A stretch of 64,000 nt of DNA from Thermoanaerobaculia bacterium (lineage in GTDB: Bacteria; Acidobacteriota; Thermoanaerobaculia; Multivoradales; UBA5704): the NCBI GenBank assembly GCA_036002325.1, contig DASYTJ010000012.1, positions 61,457 through 125,456 on the forward strand. Reading direction: 5' to 3'. Positions within the stretch are counted from its first letter, which is position 1; every line of letters starts with the position of its first letter. Of the stretch, positions 2,795-62,287 are shown one piece after another. The notes under the pieces were generated by a model. That model ran no database searches. It worked only from the letters and a program-made list of their open reading frames with translations, and was not told where the DNA came from. A program made the position numbers and the translations under genes.

Positions 2795-5700
2795 GTGGAA
2801 GCATTCTTCGTCCTCGTCGGGCTCGGGCTTTTGGGCATGGTGGCCGCAGCGCCGGTTCTGGCTATCATCGCCCTCGGGCGTGCGCGGCGTCTGGAGGCGC
2901 GCGTCGACATCCTGCAGACCGAGCTGACGGTCCTCAGGAGACACGTCGAGGCCTTCAAGACGGCGCCTTCCAGCCTGCCTGACGTTGAGGCGGTCGCCGC
3001 GCCGCGGCCTGAGCCGCCGCCGAAGCCGACCCCGCCGCCTGTTCCTGCCGTCGCGCCCGCGATGCCGGCCGCACCGCCGCCGGCCGCCACCGTGCCGCCG
3101 CGCCCCGTGCCGCCGATGACGGCTCCGGCGCCGCGGGTTGAGGCGAGAATCGAGCCGCGGCTCGAGCCGTCTCCGCCAATGCCTCCCGCTCCGCCGGCGC
3201 CTGCGGCGCCGCGGTTCGACTGGGAGAGCCTGCTGGGGCTGAAGGGAGCCGCCTGGCTGGGCGGCATCACGCTGGTCATCGCCGGCATCTTCCTCGCCAA
3301 GATGGCCTACGACGCCGGCTTCTTCAATCCCACGTTGCGCGCCGCCGCCATGGTGCTCGCCGGCGTCGGCGGGCTCATCTGGGCCGAGGTCAGCCTGCGC
3401 CGCGGCTATGTCACCACGGCCAACGCCGTCTCGGGCGCGGCCATCGCCGTCCTCTACACCGCCTTCTACGCGGCCCACGCCGTCTGGCACCTGCTGCCGC
3501 TCGGGCTCACTTTCCTGATGATGGCGCTGGTCACGGTGGTCGCCGGAGTGGTGGCCATCCGCTACGACGCGCTGTTCAGCGCCCTGCTCGGCCTGCTCGG
3601 CGGCTTCGCCACGCCGATCCTGCTGTCGACCGGCGAAGACCGGCCGGTGAGCCTCTTCTCCTACATCCTGCTGCTCAACCTCGGGCTCATGGCGGTCGCT
3701 GCGAAGAAGCGCTGGCATGGCCTCGTGCTGCTGGGGCTCGCCGGCACCTTTTTCATCGAGGCCGGCTGGGCCGCGAAGTTCCTGGCGCCGGAAAAGCTGA
3801 CGATCGGACTGCCGGTGTTCCTGATTTTCGGGCTGCTCTACCTCTTACTGCCGGCGATCGCCAAGCAGGAAGAGTCGCCGTCGTTGCTGCGGGCCGGCGC
3901 CGGGGGCATCGCCGTGCCGTTCCTCTTCGGCCTCTTCCTCGCCGGCAGCGCCCGCTACACCGGCGAGTGGCCGTTGCTCTTCGGCTATCTCGCGCTGCTC
4001 GACGCGGCGCTGATCGCCATCGCGCTGCTCCGCGGCCGGACCATCCTGCTGATCGGCGGCGCCGTCGCCACCGGCTTGACGCTGCCGCTCTGGGCGTTTC
4101 AGGGCCTCCGGCCGGCGGCGCTCTGGGGCCCGACGCTGGCGGTGATCGGCCTGGCGGCGCTGCTCAACCTGCCGGCGCGGCTGGCGCGACGGCTCGCGCC
4201 GCAGCGGCTGGAAGAGGACCGGGACGCCTACGAAGGCGCCGGCATCACGGCGGCGGCCGGCCTCGGCATCTACGCGCTCATCCTGGCGGAACGGGCGGCC
4301 GAACCGCCGTGGCCGTTCGCCGTCCTGCTCGCGGCGCTCACCCTTCTCCTCCTCGAACGTACCGGCGAGGAACGCCTGCGCTTCGTGATGCCCGTCGGCG
4401 CGACCGGCCTCGCGTTCCTGACGCAGATCTGGTTCCATCACGGCACGGCGGGCCCGACGCTGTGGCGCAACCTCGCCGTGCCGGTGCTCTTGGCGATCGT
4501 GCTGTCGCTCGTCGCCGCCCGCCGCGCCCGCGCGCCCATCAACGCCCTCGAGGACGAAGGAGGCGCGGTCGGGGCCACCATCGTCTCCGTACTCGGCTTG
4601 ATGGGCTGTCTGACCCCCGAGCTGGCAGCAGATCCCCTGCCGCTCTTCGCCGCGCTCGCCGTCTACGCCGTCCTGCTCGTCGTCTCGGCCCGGCGGCGGG
4701 ACTGGACTCCTCTCGTCGCGGCGGCTCTCGTTCTTTCGGCGGCCTTCGCCGTGGGATGGCAGGAAGGCTATTTCGAGGCGGCGGGCGGTGATCTCGCGGT
4801 CGTGCTGTCGATCTACGGCGTCTTCTATCTGGCGTTCCTCGTCCTGCCCTTCGCGCTCGCCGCGACGGTGGCTCCGGAGTGGCAGGAACGGCGGCTGCCG
4901 TGGATCAGCTCGGCGCTGGCCGGCCCGGCCTTCTTCCTGCCGCTCTACCGGGCGGTGTCGATCGGCTGGGGGAAGGCCTACATCGGTGCGCTGCCGCTGC
5001 TCCTGGCGGCGCTCAGCGTCGCGGCCGTGGCCGGCGTGAGGCGCCGCTTCGCCGCCGCGCCCGAGGGGACGCCGGAGGCGGGCCGCCGCCTCGGGTATCT
5101 GGCGCTCTTCTCCGCCGTCGCGCTCGGCTTCATCGCCGTGGCGATCCCGCTGCAGCTCCACCGCCAATGGATCACGGTCGGCTGGGCCCTCGAGGCCGCC
5201 GCGGTCTGGTGGCTGTTCGGCAAGCTGCCGCACCCGGGCCTGAAGTACTTCGGCGCGCTGCTCTTCGCCTTCGCGGGTGTGCGGCTGCTGGCGAATCCGG
5301 AGGTGCTGCGCTACGAGGAGCGCGGCCTGCCGATCGTCAACTGGCTGCTCTACACCTACGGCGTTCCGGCCCTCTGCTGCCTCGTCGGCGCCGTCTGGTT
5401 GAAGCGGGCGGAGGCGGCGCGGCAGGGCGCGCCGGACTACGACTTCCTCGCCGGAGACCGGAAGGTCCTGCCGCCGGCCGCGGCGGGCCTCGGCCTCATC
5501 CTTCTTTTCGCATTGATCAACCTGGAGATCATCGACTTCTTCTCCACCTCCCGGTACGTGGAGCTCAGCACGGAGCGCCAGCTCGCCCGCGACCTGACGA
5601 TGTCGTTGGCCTGGGGGCTCTACGCCATGGCGCTGCTGTTGACGGGCCTCTGGCGCAAGCTGCGGGCGCTGCGCTTCCTCTCCCTCGGCTTCCTGCTGCT

Positions 5701-26834: not shown

Positions 26835-26864
26835 TGTAGGGGCGCAGCATGCTGCGCCCCTACA
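26835..26864. terminator. REP-like perfect palindrome (cctGTAGGGGCGCAGCATGCTGCGCCCCTACaa), bidirectional terminator candidate
   Basis: 28-30 nt perfect palindrome between convergent BNR gene (ends 26824) and rpsU (ends 26930); identical 33-nt copy at 62255-62287, variant at 46467-46488. Confidence 0.6.
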
Positions 26865-33573: not shown

Positions 33574-33646
33574 GGGTCCATAGCTCAGCGGTGAGAGCGT
33601 CCGGCTCATAACCGGCAGGTCCCTGGTTCGAATCCAGGTGGACCCA
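33574..33646 (+). tRNA. tRNA-Met (anticodon CAT; could be tRNA-Ile2 if lysidinylated)
   Basis: Cloverleaf: acceptor GGGTCCA/TGGACCC, D arm GCTC-AGCGGTGA-GAGC, anticodon loop CTCATAA, T arm CCTGG-TTCGAAT-CCAGG; CCA not encoded. Confidence 0.85.
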
Positions 33647-40464: not shown

Positions 40465-41226
40465 ATGAAGACTCAGGCGGCAAGCGGCCTTCGCAACGGT
40501 CCTCGTGCATGGCGGCTCGCGGTGGTGTTGGCGGCCGGCTTAGCGCTTCCGCAGGCACCCGGCTGGGCGGCGGCGCAGTTCACGAATGATTTTTTGCTGG
40601 AGAACTGCACCTGGTCGGCGTGGGGCCGACAGAATCCCTACCTCAGCCTTCGTCCCGGCCGCCAACTGGTGCTCGAAGGCGAGGAGGACGGCGAAGAGAT
40701 CCGGGCGGAAATCACCGTGCTGCAGCAGCTCGAAACCATCTCCTTCGTCACCGCGAGAGGCGTGCCCCTGACCGTCGTCGCCCGGGTCGTCGAGGAACGG
40801 GAATTCGCAGGCGGCGTGATCGTCGAAGTCTCGCGGAACTGGTTCGCCCGCTGCGTCGAGACCGGCAACATCTTCTACTTCGGCGAAGAGGTCGACCTCT
40901 ACGAGGACGGAGTGCTCGTGGGCCACGAAGGCGCCTGGCGGGCCGGAGAAGAGGGCGCGCAACCCGGTCTCATCATGCCGGCGTCGTTCCTTCTCGGCGC
41001 ACGGTATTTCCAGGAGATGGCGCCCGACGTGGCCGAAGACCGGGCCGAAAACACCCGCATGGGACTGCGGGTGACCGGCCCGGCCGGCACCTTCACCGAT
41101 TGCGTTGAGGTCCAGGAGACCACTCCGCTCTCGCCCAGCTCCAAGGACATCAAGGTCTACTGTCCCGGCGTGGGAGTCGTCAAGGACGAGGCGCTGAGCC
41201 TGGTCGACATCAACATCGTGCCCTAG
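40465..41226 (+). CDS. Hypothetical secreted protein
   Basis: RBS AAGGAG upstream of ATG 40465; signal peptide MKTQAASG...LALPQAPGWAA; no recognisable motifs. Confidence 0.4.
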   Translation: MKTQAASGLRNGPRAWRLAVVLAAGLALPQAPGWAAAQFTNDFLLENCTWSAWGRQNPYLSLRPGRQLVLEGEEDGEEIRAEITVLQQLETISFVTARGVPLTVVARVVEEREFAGGVIVEVSRNWFARCVETGNIFYFGEEVDLYEDGVLVGHEGAWRAGEEGAQPGLIMPASFLLGARYFQEMAPDVAEDRAENTRMGLRVTGPAGTFTDCVEVQETTPLSPSSKDIKVYCPGVGVVKDEALSLVDINIVP

Positions 41227-41315
41227 CGGCGGCGTGCACGTGGCACACCCCTCGCATCACCGCGGGTAGTTGCCTCTCCGCGCCCGGAGAGGCGCGCCGA
41301 CGCGAGGATCGAACC

Positions 41316-41789
41316 ATGGCCGAGAGAGTCAAACCCTATAAGTCCGCGATCAACTACTGGCTGCTCGCCACCGATCCGGACGAATACAGCTACTACGATC
41401 TGGAGCGCGACACTGCCACGGTCTGGGACGGCGTCACCGATTACGAGGATCTGAAGACCCTGCGGGACGTCGAGCCCGACGAGGAGGCGCTCATTTTCCA
41501 CGCGGGCACGGAGCTCGCAATCGTCGGCATCGCCCGCATAACCTCGGATCCCTATCCGAACCCTCAGGGCACGAGCCCCGACGAAGTCGTGGTCGACGTC
41601 GTCCCCGAGCGGCGTCTGGAACGACCGTTACCGCTCGTCGAGTTCGAGGATCTTCCCGAGTTCGAGGACTTCGACCTGGTGGCAAACCCCGACCTCTCCG
41701 TCGTGCCCGTCACGCCGGAGCTCTGGAACCGGCTTCTCGAGCTGAGCGGGGCCGCGCTGGCGCTGTCCACACAGGAGGATCAGGAGTAG
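41316..41789 (+). CDS. EVE (PUA-like) domain protein
   Basis: 157 aa; NYWLLATDPDEYSYYDL...IARITSDPYP pattern of EVE domain. Confidence 0.65.
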   Translation: MAERVKPYKSAINYWLLATDPDEYSYYDLERDTATVWDGVTDYEDLKTLRDVEPDEEALIFHAGTELAIVGIARITSDPYPNPQGTSPDEVVVDVVPERRLERPLPLVEFEDLPEFEDFDLVANPDLSVVPVTPELWNRLLELSGAALALSTQEDQE

Positions 41790-41825
41790 GCCCCCTCGAG
41801 AGCCACGGTCAAGAACCTCTTCCGA

Positions 41826-42235
41826 ACAAGCTTCAGGCGAGCCGATGCAAGCTTGTGGCGAGCCGATGCAAGCCTGAGGTGACGCGACTGAAGCTTGAAG
41901 TGGCGCAATTGAAGGCGCAAGTGACGCGACGACTGCTTGAAGTGGCGCGGCTGAAGCTTGCGGCGAGCGGGTCGAAGCTTCCAGCGAGGCGGCGGAAGCT
42001 TGCGGGATTTCCGGCAAGCTTCAGCCGCGACGGCGCAAGCTTCAGGCGAGTGGGCACAAGTTTGCGGCGTGACGCGCGAAGCTTGCGGTGACCCGGTTGC
42101 AGCTTGCCGGGAGACGCCTGAAGCTTCTGGCGAGCCGATTGAAGCTGCAAACGAAGCGCCTGAAGCTTGCGGGATCTCCGGCAAGCTTGAACCGCAGCGC
42201 CGCAAGCTTTCTCCCGAGCCGCCTGAAGCTTGCCG
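41826..42235. repeat. Tandem array of about 20 imperfect 21-bp repeats each beginning AAGCTT (HindIII palindrome)
   Basis: Units such as caAGCTTcaggcgagccgatg, caAGCTTgtggcgagccgatg, AAGCTTgcggcgagcgggtcg, AAGCTTcaggcgagtgggcac; occupies whole convergent intergenic gap between EVE gene and esterase gene; generates frame-shifting KL-heptad pseudo-ORFs on both strands. Confidence 0.85.
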
Positions 42236-42236
42236 C

Positions 42237-42986
42237 TCACCACCCCATCCAGTCGATCGCGTACGGCAGCATCTTGCGCCACCACGGCCAATCGTGGTTC
42301 ACGTCGTGGCCCCAGATGTCGAGGAAGTGGGGAATCCCCTTGCTGAACAGGAGATCCGAGAGCCGCCGCGAGGCGTGCGGCGCCTCGTAGGCGCCCTGGC
42401 CGGTGAGGATGTGGATCTTGCACGCCGTCTGCAGCAGATGAAGCTGCTGGCCCGCCAGGTTCGGCAGATACCAGGCGGGGTTGTTGAAATAGCAATTGTC
42501 GTCGCTGTAGCCGTGCAGATAGTCCGGCTCCAGATCGTAGAAGCCGCTCATGGCGATGACGGCGTCGAAGAGGTCCGGCCGTCGAAAAAGGATATTGGCC
42601 GCGTGGAAGGCGCCGAAGCTGGCGCCGCAGGTGGCGATGCGGAGGTCGGGCGTCTGGCAGGCCTGGCGGATGAAGGGGACGACCTCCTCCTCCACGTAAC
42701 GGGCGTAGAGGGCCTGCCGGCGCGCCTGCTCGGGCACCGGCAGGCTGCGGTCCATCCAGGCCTGCTGGTTGATGCTGTTGATCGAGAAGATCCGCACCCG
42801 GCCGGCGTCGAGAGCCTGGTCGGCCGCCCCGATCAGATGGAAGCGCTCGTTCTCCAGGAAGTCCGCGGCGGCCGTGGGAAAAAGCAGCAGCGGGTGACCC
42901 CAGTGGCCGTAGGAGACGATGGGCATGTCCTGCCCCAGGATCGGGCTGTGCCAGCCCGCAATCTCGCGCCGATCGCCATACCCCAT
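42237..42986 (-). CDS. Esterase family alpha/beta hydrolase (putative esterase PF00756-like)
   Basis: Start at MGYGDRREIAGWHSP with RBS; GASFGAFHAANILF (G-x-S-x-G nucleophile elbow variant), C-terminal His. Confidence 0.6.
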   Translation of the reverse strand: MGYGDRREIAGWHSPILGQDMPIVSYGHWGHPLLLFPTAAADFLENERFHLIGAADQALDAGRVRIFSINSINQQAWMDRSLPVPEQARRQALYARYVEEEVVPFIRQACQTPDLRIATCGASFGAFHAANILFRRPDLFDAVIAMSGFYDLEPDYLHGYSDDNCYFNNPAWYLPNLAGQQLHLLQTACKIHILTGQGAYEAPHASRRLSDLLFSKGIPHFLDIWGHDVNHDWPWWRKMLPYAIDWMGW

Positions 42987-43099
42987 GGTCCTGGCCTCCT
43001 GCGGCTGAGCCCCGCGGAAAGAAATTGCGCCGGAGGATAACACTCTTGCTTGGCGAGGGCTGCCGGTGTCACAGTCCAACTTCCAGAGAGACCGGAGCC

Positions 43100-43867
43100 A
43101 TGGAGAGAATCCCCGTCGTCGCGAACGGCCGCGAGGTGTCCCACCTCGCCGTGCGCTTCGATCCGCCTGCGAAAGGTCAGGGAACCACAGTCCTCTACCT
43201 CCACGGATTTGGCTCCGAGCAATCGGGGGAGAAGGCCGAGTTCTTTCGCCGGCAGGCGCTCGCGGCAGGCTTCGGATTCTGCTCCTTCGACTTCCAAGGC
43301 CACGGACTCTCCGGCGGCGAGATCGGCTCCCTCACCCTGACGCGCAACTTGGAGGACGTCCGCCGCGTCCACGATTTCCTGCGCGCCCGCGGGCAGGAGC
43401 GGCTCGTCCTCGTCGGCTCGTCGATGGGCGGCGGCACGGCGCTCTGGTACTCGGCGCTCCATCCCGAGGACATCGTCGCCGGCCTGCACATCGCTCCGGC
43501 GCTGGAATTGGAGCGCGGCCTCCTCGCCTGGGCGGGGCCGGAGAGGGAGCGCATCTGGCAGGAAACGGGAACCATCCATTTTGAGAACGAGTTCGTCTCC
43601 TGCGAGCTCGGCTGGTCGCTGATCGATGACCTGCGCGCCCATCCTGTCGAGGCGCTGCTCGCCCATTACCGCACTCCCTGCCTTCTGCTCCAAGGCAAGC
43701 AGGACCCCTCGGTCCCCTGGCGCGGCGTCGCCGAGTTTGCCACGCGCTGTACTTTTCAGGAGATCGAGCTGCATCTCTTTGCGGACGGCGATCACCGCCT
43801 GACCGACCGCAGGGAGAGACTCTGGGAGCTGATGATGGAGTTCCTGCAGGGGCGGGGATTGATCTAG
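43100..43867 (+). CDS. Alpha/beta hydrolase
   Basis: Start MERIPVV; HGFGSEQSG, GSSMGGGTALWY (GxSxG), C-terminal DGDHRL (catalytic His). Confidence 0.7.
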   Translation: MERIPVVANGREVSHLAVRFDPPAKGQGTTVLYLHGFGSEQSGEKAEFFRRQALAAGFGFCSFDFQGHGLSGGEIGSLTLTRNLEDVRRVHDFLRARGQERLVLVGSSMGGGTALWYSALHPEDIVAGLHIAPALELERGLLAWAGPERERIWQETGTIHFENEFVSCELGWSLIDDLRAHPVEALLAHYRTPCLLLQGKQDPSVPWRGVAEFATRCTFQEIELHLFADGDHRLTDRRERLWELMMEFLQGRGLI

Positions 43868-46435: not shown

Positions 46436-46466
46436 CGCCAATCTGCCAATAGAGGAAAAGCGGCTG

Positions 46467-46488
46467 GGGGCGCAGCATGCTGCGCCCC
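46467..46488. terminator. REP-like palindrome variant GGGGCGCAGCATGCTGCGCCCC
   Basis: Between convergent TPR gene (ends 46435) and cupredoxin-like gene (ends 46500). Confidence 0.5.
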
Positions 46489-46499
46489 ACTTAAGAGGT

Positions 46500-62257: not shown

Positions 62258-62287
62258 TGTAGGGGCGCAGCATGCTGCGCCCCTACA
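62258..62287. terminator. REP-like perfect palindrome, identical copy of 26835-26864 element
   Basis: Between convergent CsgG-like gene and kinase-TonB gene. Confidence 0.6.

Follow-up and report, generated by a model that had tools for sequence, protein, structure and literature searches.

In this study we characterize a tandem array of 20 short units, each anchored on the palindrome AAGCTT or a decayed form of it, that fills a 447-bp gap between the convergent genes for an EVE-domain protein and an esterase in a soil acidobacterium (Thermoanaerobaculia, Acidobacteriota). The array is non-coding and self-complementary, it recurs as a family in other bacteria, and its esterase-proximal end has kept a relic of a terminator. 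We tentatively read it as a REP/BIME-like self-complementary satellite that would serve as a bidirectional 3'-end structure; judged from sequence comparison, such a 3'-end role is the most likely mechanism. A preliminary description of the window (the whole 64-kb stretch of DNA that was analysed) had noted about 20 tandem repeats starting with AAGCTT in a convergent intergenic gap, and both points were borne out, by the unit count and by gene calls on opposite strands (EVE plus, esterase minus). What had been overlooked is that units lie in both orientations, that self-complementarity is strong, that there is a 167-bp higher-order duplication and that the array belongs to a recurrent family. 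The features are as follows.

41316..41789, plus strand: gene for an EVE (PUA-like) domain protein of 157 aa (Pfam PF01878, E=1.8e-29; gene call in assemblies L001/L002)
41790..41827, no strand: non-repeat leader from the EVE stop codon to the first AAGCTT, aligning with the orthologous locus L288 except for a 4-nt indel
41828..42236, no strand: AAGCTT-anchored array, 20 units with 14 exact and 6 degenerate anchors
41828..41995, plus strand: block 1, eight 21-bp units in one orientation, G-rich, GC skew +0.2
41921..42042, no strand: copy 1 of a higher-order duplication (8 units, 167-bp period, 75% identity between copies)
41996..42021, no strand: first 20-nt unit and the next anchor, AAGCTTGCGGGATTTCCGGCAAGCTT, a self-contained hairpin/palindrome and the first frame break
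42079..42209, no strand: imperfect palindrome of ~130 nt, from inverted repeats and MFE structures, centred on the degenerate anchor 42142-42147
42088..42209, no strand: copy 2 of the higher-order duplication, from repeat search
42163..42188, no strand: second 20-nt unit and the next anchor, AAGCTTGCGGGATCTCCGGCAAGCTT, a paralog of AAGCTTGCGGGATTTCCGGCAAGCTT 167 bp downstream and the second frame break
42209..42224, minus strand: terminator relic, the 16-mer AGGCGGCTCGGGAGAA in minus-strand reading, within the array's only 22-nt unit
42237..42986, minus strand: esterase / alpha-beta hydrolase gene, 249 aa (Pfam PF00756; gene call)
26835-26864 and 62258-62287: the window's own GTAG-tagged REPs, separate in sequence from the array units

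Fourteen of the 18 exact AAGCTT sites of the window lie within 41828-42231, and the six degenerate anchors are AAGCCT (41870), AAGGCG (41912), CTGCTT (41933), AAGTTT (42058), CAGCTT (42100) and AAGCTG (42142); block 1 contains three of them. Units follow head to tail at 21 bp (16 times), 20 bp (twice) or 22 bp (once), which upholds the ~21-bp period noted before and tightens its range from 18-24 bp to 20-22 bp. The unit consensus is AAGCTT-S-N-GGCGAG-N-CG-N4. The pattern AAGCTT-N14-16-AAGCTT-N14-16-AAGCTT was matched five times in the window and never in 100 dinucleotide shuffles, and TRF reported period-21 arrays at 41827-42137. The units are ~55-60% alike. As described previously, the anchor is the best-kept part: its columns are 90-100% conserved across units, against 35-80% for body columns apart from four better-kept positions (G at offsets 9 and 11, 80% each; C at offset 15, 90%; G at offset 16, 75%). 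The conserved positions are symmetric about the anchor (CG-N4-AAGCTT-N4-CG), giving a partly symmetric 18-bp dyad with a 3-bp linker. AAGCTT is not an A-tract. GC content is 62-65% throughout. In the 63.5 kb outside the array AAGCTT occurs four times versus 5-7 expected, neither avoided nor enriched, and there is no restriction avoidance of the site. The array is identical in L001 (JGI) and L002 (Logan), two further assemblies made independently, which rules out an assembly artefact. The array is a prokaryotic non-coding satellite or minisatellite, with head-to-tail repeats of at least 10 bp in at least four copies outside genes.

The preliminary description had argued that no frame is maintained, while also considering a recently frameshifted coiled-coil gene made of KL-x5 heptad repeats. 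The 21-bp period does equal seven codons, and on the minus strand one frame runs through the array without a stop (ORF 41833-42495). However, prolines and glycines abound in its translation, the frame is broken three times by the 20-, 20- and 22-nt units, and two of these breaks recur in the orthologous array L288. The best array frame has GC2/GC3 values of 0.49/0.76 and lacks the contrast of the flanking genes (GC2 0.37-0.43, GC3 0.84-0.90), substitutions between the two orthologous arrays are not 3-periodic, the six-frame translation has no Pfam match, and the array translation has no homolog among 5.8 billion proteins. Arrays of the same style have 20-bp periods, and there is no reading frame common to them because the offset from AAGCTT to the GGCGAGCC motif differs (1, 2 or 4 nt). 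The coiled-coil gene is refuted for practical purposes, with a probability close to nil, and the earlier suggestion that any function of the array would lie at the level of DNA or RNA is supported.

Other known repeat types were also rejected. CRISPR arrays have ~23-50-bp repeats with unique spacers of similar length and usually cas genes or a leader nearby. Here conservation covers 6-8 bp, the 13-15-bp bodies are divergent versions of each other (motif GGCGAGCC) rather than unique spacers, and there are no cas genes within 10 kb on either side, in agreement with the earlier exclusion of a CRISPR. ToxI-like type III toxin-antitoxin loci have two to six repeats of ~34-45 nt directly upstream of a ToxN/AbiE-type toxin gene; we found 20 copies of a 21-nt unit on which EVE and esterase genes converge. 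Rfam 15 gave no family at the gathering threshold at the array, only chance-level matches to miRNA models far below it, and Rfam gave nothing at the arrays of 11 loci. By analogy it might be thought that the array yields a 3'-UTR-derived RNA whose ~20 AAGCUU motifs would titrate a putative RNA-binding protein. CsrB and RsmZ carry many short-motif repeats in one RNA, and ~20 repeats within ~400 nt would resemble that architecture; given the 5-38 nt to the stop codons, transcription of the array as 3' UTR would be required. Besides the lack of an Rfam family, the array brings with it neither a promoter nor a terminator, it contains few of the GGA motifs that characterize CsrA sponges, the two strands look alike, which an RNA motif would not need, and some sister arrays lie in divergent promoter gaps. 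We consider such a sponge quite improbable.

The gene setting is in keeping with a 3'-end role. From the EVE stop codon it is 38 nt to the first anchor, and from the end of the last anchor 5 nt to the esterase stop codon, in a chromosomal housekeeping context (hydrolase, M49 peptidase, FKBP and cytochrome genes) with esterase orthologs 75-89% identical in named Thermoanaerobaculia. A scan of 41000-43200 gave 0 terminator-like sites, that is, no canonical (bidirectional) intrinsic terminator, and a promoter scan found none at the array. In the esterase-proximal unit, AGGCGGCTCGGGAGAA is an exact 16-nt match at the equivalent position in the relatives L124/L125 (blastn E=1.8e-4), where an intrinsic-terminator hairpin lies downstream of the esterase gene, its T-run visible in L124. 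The narrow convergent gap without a canonical terminator and the retained 16 nt of the relatives' terminator hairpin both argue for the 3'-end reading; the lack of a U-tract after any hairpin of the array argues against it.

Self-complementarity provides further support. Against dinucleotide shuffles, predicted folding of the two strands gave z-scores of -8.6/-7.2 for the array alone and -5.8/-5.5 with flanks. The dominant predicted hairpin of both strands is the ~130-nt imperfect palindrome, with units in opposite orientation on either side of its centre. Only two of the 20 units (41996 and 42163) are self-contained hairpins; the remaining pairing joins units of opposite orientation. The L288 array also folds better than shuffles (z -4.9/-5.6), as do, by far and on both strands, 13 of the 16 arrays of AAGCTT style; in L089 a unit alternates perfectly with its reverse complement (z -16). 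This both-strand excess, as far as models of folding go, speaks for the 3'-end reading. On the other side, the predicted structures are not kept in detail: 44 of the 62 changed MFE pairs are broken between the window and L288, both 20-nt hairpin units are weakened there, and covariation or complementarity of the flanks around anchors was no better than in permutations in 12 of 12 arrays. In L035, with 19 anchors, folding was no better than in shuffles, and in L074 and L108 it was weak. These modelled results count against the 3'-end reading. A 6-bp A/U-rich helix alone is also too weak to explain why the anchor is best kept.

The locus L288, whose EVE protein is 94% identical, offers the comparison of unit numbers at an orthologous site that had been called for. 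It has 21 units colinear with the 20 of the window, differing by a one-unit indel, over a silent-site divergence of ~10-15%, and a unit of the same length (20 nt) at the position matching the 41996 unit. The preliminary description had also proposed a phase-variation minisatellite. Such a contingency locus would change its unit number at high frequency, and a tandem repeat with short palindromic microhomology at each unit boundary might be expected to do so. Yet the three independent assemblies agree exactly, the two loci have kept their units colinear, units only ~55-60% alike are a poor substrate for slippage, and the array sits in a 3' gap outside any promoter or ORF. This idea is largely refuted already and scarcely credible.

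Anchors evolve differently from bodies. Between the window and L288 anchors are 87% kept versus 73% for bodies (p=0.0017), and in the internal duplication 34 of 36 anchor positions agree from copy to copy (94%) versus 58 of 86 body positions (67%, p=0.0011). The anchor variants are propagated by the higher-order repeats, and the orientation of the array is arbitrary. The constraint between orthologs is modest: 11 of 20 anchors differ, and by our arithmetic the contrast shrinks to ~86% versus 80% without five apparently replaced units.

It might also be possible that the array has no function at all. It would then have arisen as a by-product when a palindromic terminator underwent slippage or unequal exchange, or by the copying of another array in the course of the rearrangement that brought the EVE and esterase blocks together; it would be tolerated because convergent 3' gaps lack promoters, and now be decaying, with the anchor as a mark of amplification and not of a cellular role. 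In line with this, none of the relatives at 80-90% protein identity has the array, and its position is a synteny breakpoint. Array bodies diverge faster than third codon positions (27% versus 18%), anchors were lost independently (6 in the window, 8 in L288), and unit replacement, including in block 1, is visible alongside the one-unit indel. Higher-order repeats, typical of satellites, are present here and in L035, L065 and L089, and L035 and L065, two loci of one MAG (DATAHG01), have unit types in common, which suggests that arrays spread within a genome. However, conservation of 92% in anchors against ~50% in bodies is impossible by neutral decay from identical units. In a second orthologous pair, L133/L142, the array is about half as diverged as third-codon and intergenic sites (7% versus 13%, p=0.04). 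The same anchor is found in different phyla among the matches listed, and in a genome of 67% GC its A/T positions should decay faster, not slower. We regard a purely tolerated satellite as unlikely. Even so, it would still be useful as a rearrangement marker and as a warning for gene callers and assemblers.

Arrays of 20-21-bp units anchored on AAGCTT were also found, among the matches listed, in Holophagales, other Thermoanaerobaculia, Gemmatimonadota and soil metagenomes. We propose a class defined by at least 8 units, a period of 20-22 bp, intergenic location and an AAGCTT whose conservation far exceeds that of the remaining unit; its members are the window array, L288, L070, L035, L089, L065, L010, L072, L022, L133, L128, L138, L142, L074, L108 and L116. 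The window itself holds one such array. Most sister arrays adjoin a stop codon within 0-41 nt (L070, L035, L065, L133, L142, L089), which speaks for the 3'-end reading, while L128 and L074 lie between divergent gene starts and not at 3' ends, which speaks against it. No neighbour gene is common to the arrays compared, none that could encode a dedicated partner; this and the non-coding nature of the array favour the 3'-end reading. Viral contigs contained only ordinary coding-type repeats of exactly 21 nt and high identity and none of AAGCTT-array style, there was no match to the array in 72,556 plasmids, and we found no description of AAGCTT-anchored 20-21-bp arrays in the literature. Other arrays of 21-22-bp units in the same bacterial class, those of L291 and L030, have different palindromes. 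The relative L291 has, in the same place downstream of EVE, a different 21-bp array with clear stem-loop units (ATTCCC-N4-GGGAAT). By comparison of sequences this points to palindromy with a ~21-nt period, not one motif, as the common theme, and it would fit a 3'-end role at this site.

The strongest competitor of the 3'-end reading comes from the anchor itself. Each AAGCTT might be the site of a putative dimeric DNA-binding protein or AAGCTT-specific methyltransferase, with ~20 sites two helical turns apart forming a platform for high-avidity loading, titration, a roadblock or an epigenetic mark, built like sopC, the EBV FR repeats or tandem ARG boxes. Unit bodies are unrelated between arrays and the palindromic hexamer is their only common feature; its excess conservation, among units, between orthologs and between duplication copies, would be expected of a binding site, as would the tolerance of either unit orientation. 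The period is held at 20-21 bp, L035 keeps perfect anchors though it is free of structure, the conserved positions of the window array are symmetric about the anchor, and A/T-rich anchors persist in a GC-rich background. Set against this, there is no candidate binding-protein, par or rep gene nearby, and no neighbour in common. L070, L035 and L010 show no symmetry outside the hexamer, the ortholog constraint on anchors is modest, there is neither avoidance nor enrichment of AAGCTT beyond the array, and the L291 and L030 arrays use other palindromes. The preliminary description had placed all sites on one DNA face, which holds only in part: sister periods are partly 20.0-20.5 bp, and a 20.0-bp period does not keep sites on one face. 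We think that a protein platform is possible, if rather doubtful.

A bolder version is that AAGCTT arrays are a genuine, undescribed class of cis-elements of Acidobacteriota, Gemmatimonadota and related soil bacteria, the anchor being the recognition site of a dedicated putative protein. This could be (a) a dimeric nucleoid, roadblock or methylation factor loading cooperatively on ~20 phased sites or (b) a site-specific nuclease or recombinase that amplifies arrays, copies them between loci and promotes rearrangements. We hold this proposal to be unlikely as a whole; if version (b) were true, the arrays would represent a novel type of mobile satellite, comparable to REP elements with their associated RAYT (TnpA_REP) transposases but built of tandem units.

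Under the 3'-end reading, the array would have arisen or been copied in at a rearrangement junction, where it may have overwritten the intrinsic terminator that ancestrally followed the esterase gene. Because it adjoins both stop codons, transcripts of both convergent genes would carry it as their 3' UTR. Since units of both orientations present the self-complementary AAGCUU at a constant register, each of the two transcripts, and likewise each DNA strand, could fold into long imperfect hairpins. These hairpins might act as a bidirectional stop or insulator and as a shield against 3' exonucleases. What is kept would then be general foldability and the anchor register, not particular base pairs, and the anchor could possibly also be the site used by a machinery that amplifies or copies arrays.

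Acidobacteriota abound in soil, and to our knowledge their non-coding DNA has hardly been explored. A recurrent type of array that strictly keeps a 6-bp palindrome, with two helical turns as its period, may provide a handle on how transcription of convergent genes is ended or insulated in GC-rich bacteria that have no U-tract terminators there. It may equally be a handle on the existence of an AAGCTT-specific protein or methylation system, and on how arrays spread, interrupt MAG assemblies and flag breakpoints of synteny.

Among known systems, iterons are 17-22-bp direct repeats spaced ~21-22 bp and as such similar to the array, but a rep gene, an AT-rich unwinding region and DnaA boxes are absent here, and there are 20 units versus 4-9. 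The iteron array proposed earlier, and with it a replication origin, was rejected on these grounds and for want of a par gene and any plasmid context. The sopC site of the F plasmid (12 x 43 bp), the family of repeats of EBV oriP (~20 x 30 bp) and tandem ARG boxes (18-bp palindromes 3 bp apart, a 21-bp period) share with the array tandem units with a dyad-symmetric core, ~20 units or a period of integral helical turns; the ARG boxes are similar to the window array also in their 18-bp site with a 3-bp linker, partly symmetric here. Unlike sopC-type sites, the array lacks a nearby par, rep or regulator gene and its core is only 6 bp long, and sister arrays have 20.0-bp periods and asymmetric flanks. 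No ParA/ParB family genes lie within 10 kb on either side, as would mark a centromere-like partition site.

STAR elements of staphylococci (PMC3532100) and the TAACTGA repeats of Beggiatoaceae (PMC4679880) likewise reiterate a short motif in intergenic DNA with variable sequence between. In the parts of these two sources considered here, their function is unexplained or proposed to be post-transcriptional, and their motifs are different and non-palindromic, irregularly spaced, in few copies per locus and in unrelated taxa. Dispersed non-coding satellite families have been reported to be rare in prokaryotes: Subirana & Messeguer 2019 (PMC6749651) found them only in Leptospira interrogans and Methanocella conradii, with 37-69-nt units. 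These are tandem, non-coding and intergenic, with higher-order structure and families of several loci, as are the arrays studied here, but the units are longer and no palindrome-anchored 20-21-bp class is described there.

The closest relatives in kind are the REP/BIME elements of enterobacteria and Pseudomonas, with their GTAG- or CGTC-tagged families (PMC3733652). The preliminary description had likened the junction to that of the REP-like palindromes, and this is true in part only: the REPs of the window form a family of their own, single 30-bp palindromes with a GTAG tag. The array differs from REP/BIME in that its 20-21-bp head-to-tail units are mostly not individual stem-loops (2 of 20 are), in that its invariant part is a perfect 6-bp palindrome and not a GTAG or CGTC tag, and in that unit bodies vary widely within one array. 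Both, however, are extragenic and lie mostly at 3' ends or between convergent genes, as do the window array and most of its sisters. Both occur in multi-unit clusters and in two orientations that give hairpins on both strands, and both combine a brief invariant tag with a stem that varies more. REP/BIME elements occupy many loci per genome; of the arrays, two related ones (L035 and L065) lie in one MAG. The roles in termination and mRNA protection that have been proposed for REP/BIME are those that the array, on our reading, may share.

The preliminary description of an AAGCTT-anchored tandem array of about 21-bp units filling a convergent gap is borne out, and the region reads as it was described there. 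The array fills the 447 bp between an EVE-domain gene and an esterase gene, homologs of which place the host in Thermoanaerobaculia, Acidobacteriota. The identical array sequence is carried by two further assemblies (JGI 3300036861 and Logan SRR11742962), so it is real and stable. The features of the locus are, in window coordinates:

41316-41789, + strand: EVE-domain gene (Pfam and gene call)
41921-42042 versus 42088-42209: higher-order duplication of eight units, 167-bp, 75% identical
41996 and 42163: two 20-nt units, each a self-contained hairpin AAGCTTGCGGGAT(T/C)TCCGGCAAGCTT and a paralog of the other
centred on the anchor at 42142: imperfect palindrome of ~130 nt (repeat search and MFE folding)
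42209-42224, - strand: 16-nt relic AGGCGGCTCGGGAGAA in the esterase-proximal unit, the sole 22-mer
42237-42986, - strand: PF00756 esterase gene (Pfam and gene call)

Fourteen of the 18 exact AAGCTT sites in the window fall within 41828-42231 and, together with six anchors bearing one to three mismatches, make up 20 units; off the array the hexamer shows no enrichment or avoidance (4 sites against an expected 5-7). A three-anchor pattern matched five times at the array and 0 times in 100 shuffles, and period-21 repeat families were called there both by TRF and by a second repeat search. The 21-bp spacing first noted is indeed the norm (16 times), but the real spread is 20-22 bp (20 bp twice, 22 bp once). 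Anchor columns are conserved at 90-100% and the unit bodies mostly at 35-60%, apart from the better-kept offsets 9 and 11 (G) and 15-16 (CG); such a contrast (~92% vs ~50%) is incompatible with neutral decay of identical units. The unit consensus is AAGCTT-S-N-GGCGAG-N-CG-N4, which joined to the preceding unit gives a partly symmetric CG-N4-AAGCTT-N4-CG. On the left, eight G-rich units share a single orientation, the right third includes units in the opposite orientation, and the GC skew flips sign near 42100.

That the array is non-coding, as had been proposed, is confirmed by several lines of evidence. Its reading frame is interrupted at three units, its frames reach at best 0.49/0.76 in GC2/GC3 against 0.37-0.43 and 0.84-0.90 in the flanking genes, and its long ORFs have no Pfam match and no homolog in a search of 5.8 billion proteins. 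Both 20-nt units are present in the orthologous array of a relative (L288), which makes the frame breaks ancestral and rules out sequencing errors; substitutions between these two arrays show no three-base periodicity, and the class as a whole cannot be coding, given sister arrays with periods of 20 and 20.5 bp. A degenerate coiled-coil gene can thus be set aside. Unit number, which was to be compared at orthologous loci, varies little: the two arrays are colinear, apart from one additional unit in L288 and a pair of small indels at the ends. The array shows no hypervariability, and the suggested phase-variation minisatellite does not fit a sequence identical in three assemblies and colinear in L288. 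Decayed gene, VNTR and sponge RNA are, even taken jointly, very improbable.

Between the window and L288, EVE is 90.5% and the 3' part of the esterase 94.9% identical, differing mostly at third codon positions, and the array is 77% identical (anchors 87%, bodies 73%; Fisher p=0.0017). Bodies have diverged more (27%) than third codon positions (18%) and are close to neutral in this lineage. By arithmetic on the unit alignment, the contrast shrinks to ~86% vs 80% without the five most divergent units, so that anchor constraint from the ortholog evidence is modest; some units appear to have been swapped for neighbouring unit types. Anchors were lost independently, six in the window and eight in L288. 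Between the internal duplication copies, 34/36 anchor positions are identical vs 58/86 in bodies (p=0.0011), and the anchor is the best-kept feature of the array. In a second orthologous pair from metagenomes (L133 and L142), colinear over ten units, the array diverged by 7% vs 13% at third-codon and intergenic sites, about half (p=0.04). L142 845-1628 is 92% identical to L133 (reverse complement) over an ECF sigma factor gene, and this identity also covers the initial ~220 nt of the neighbouring zf-HC2 anti-sigma gene as well as the downstream array; the remaining ~800 nt of the anti-sigma gene do not align at all, which suggests that a sensor domain was swapped next to the array.

Among relatives, only L288 (EVE 94% identical) has the EVE-array-esterase arrangement. 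Where the esterase is 80-88% identical, it is followed either by DinB_2 or by an otherwise plain gap that holds a canonical terminator, and AAGCTT is wholly absent; where the EVE protein is 83-90% identical, EVE faces PIN, GWxTD or Coa1 genes at 7-66 bp, with no array beside it. The array therefore marks a synteny breakpoint and is itself restricted to a shallow clade. The relic AGGCGGCTCGGGAGAA is part of the terminator stem-loop of two relatives (L124 and L125), where it lies equally far from the esterase stop codon, so the array overwrote an intrinsic terminator. It is unlikely that the array is simply a tolerated, decaying satellite that arose at a rearrangement: this would account for the shallow distribution and the near-neutral bodies but would leave the anchor unexplained. 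Compared with L122, L123 and L289-L296, gene content downstream of the esterase and of EVE at 41790-42236 varies (DinB_2, PIN, ParE/VapB toxin-antitoxin genes, GWxTD, Coa1), and the region looks like a local rearrangement or insertion hotspot. One Thermoanaerobaculia relative (L291, EVE 86% identical) carries at 4700-5060, downstream of EVE, a 21-bp tandem array of another kind, which shows a higher order of 125 bp. All of its units form stem-loops or dyads, C(A/G)TTCCC-N4-GGGAA(T/C)G, whose centres are UNCG-like, and the array folds with z about -7.7 on both strands.

GTDB species genomes were searched for three phased AAGCTT sites. The matches listed comprise chance hits, ordinary coding repeats and long arrays in the style of the window array, and the following are among them:

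L070, Holophagales: 24 units, period 20/21
L035, Thermoanaerobaculia: 20 units of exactly 20 bp, 40-bp higher order
L065: same MAG as L035, with unit types common to both
L089, Acidobacteriota: 24 units, unit and reverse complement strictly alternating
L010 and L072: long AAGCTT arrays
L022 and L074, Gemmatimonadota: long AAGCTT arrays

Four more, L128, L133, L138 and L142, came from metagenomes scanned with a unit-specific pattern. Every sister array keeps AAGCTT far better than the remaining unit, and bodies vary from array to array, although the combination of AAGCTT with GGCGAGCC is shared by the window, L288, L089, L074, L133/L142, L128 and L138 at offsets of 1, 2 or 4 nt. Viral contigs yielded only exact-21, high-identity coding-type repeats and not this array style, and plasmids gave no match. 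Neighbouring genes are unrelated (PilZ, anti-sigma factor, dihydroorotase, QueG, methyltransferases, ZIP transporter). A stop codon lies 0-41 nt from the start or end of most arrays, and the L128 and L074 arrays sit between divergent gene starts. It is possible, with less confidence than for the reading we favor below, that the array is a phased DNA platform for a putative AAGCTT-recognising protein, as the earlier protein-binding idea had it; this would explain the anchor, the indifference to orientation and a period that stays fixed. However, there is no candidate protein, several arrays lack symmetry past the hexamer, and the measured constraint is only modest. The proposal that all sites lie on one DNA face is weakened by the sister periods of 20 and 20.5 bp.

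Some of these arrays have peculiarities of their own. L035 5769-6170 and L065 519-930 (MAG DATAHG01) are unrelated loci whose unit types agree, down to a distinctive pair at the terminus, GGAAATT(A/T)T-AAGC(C/T)(C/T)-GCCCGG(T/C)CATC, so that entire arrays are copied from locus to locus within a genome. Other palindromes occur in two incidental arrays in the same class, ATTCCC-N4-GGGAAT in L291 (21 bp) and GTCGAC-containing units in L030 (22 bp). The latter, a 3.2-kb Thermoanaerobaculia MAG contig, has tandem arrays at both ends (1-117 and 3004-3207), one AAGCTT-anchored with 100% identical 21-bp units, the other of 22-bp units TCGACGTCGACGTGGGGCACCA with GTCGAC and GACGTC palindromes, starting ~30 bp upstream of a 461-aa ORF; arrays of this type appear to break MAG assemblies. 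Units of L010 (791-1079) contain GATCACCTCC, the very sequence of the anti-Shine-Dalgarno region at the conserved 3' end of 16S rRNA in bacteria, giving 13 phased Shine-Dalgarno-like GGAGGTGATC sites on the opposite strand. AAGCTT-phased non-coding arrays of 20-22 bp also occur in Bacteroidota (L005 837-1560, Tannerellaceae; L108 585-810, Flammeovirgaceae) and in lower-GC Acidobacteriota (L116 and L040, Pyrinomonadaceae). The L108 unit is a clear hairpin, CTTGCAG-CGY-CTGCAAG, with an AAG linker, so that AAGCTT there is stem base plus linker.

The window array folds far better on both strands than dinucleotide shuffles do (z -5.8/-5.5 with flanks, -8.6/-7.2 alone), and the L288 array is on a par with it. 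Specific base pairs are not conserved between the two, since 44/62 window MFE pairs altered in L288 are broken, and anchor flanks show no covariation in 12/12 arrays. In 13/16 arrays both strands fold with z from -3.2 to -16; L035 folds no better than shuffles, and L074 and L108 are weak. Generic self-complementarity, which stems either from units lying in both orientations or from bodies that are palindromic internally, is thus common, not universal, in the class. Of three ranked explanations, ahead of the protein platform and then the tolerated satellite, we tentatively place first a REP/BIME-like self-complementary satellite, a structural bidirectional 3'-end element that would act through nucleic-acid structure at the 3' ends of both convergent genes. 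Such an element accounts for the closeness to both stop codons in place of a terminator, for two-strand foldability without pair conservation and for the related hairpin array that L291 has at the same site. It does not account well for a weak 6-bp palindrome as the best-kept feature, nor for arrays like L035.

The array is recurrent and solidly observed, and any function is putative. It fails the defining tests of CRISPR, as had been anticipated, and equally those of iterons, one of the likenesses first suggested, and of partition sites, type III antitoxin repeats, canonical terminators and Rfam families. Across the whole window, Rfam has a single match that reaches the gathering threshold, a tRNA gene at 33574-33646. 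Literature searches turned up no description of AAGCTT-anchored arrays. GTAG-tagged REP-like perfect 30-bp palindromes, TGTAGGGGCGCAGCA|TGCTGCGCCCCTACA, lie in the window at 26835-26864 and 62258-62287, with a degenerate copy at 46464-46491. At least one of them, the copy at 62258, directly follows a stop codon. The likeness in junction noted earlier is only partly true, these palindromes being a separate family unrelated in sequence to the array. REP/BIME elements would be closest in mode of working, yet the array is not a member, having neither a per-unit hairpin nor a GTAG tag. It can be classed only in generic terms, as a non-coding satellite of a prokaryote, and dispersed non-coding families are reported as rare in the one survey of prokaryotic satellites (PMC6749651).
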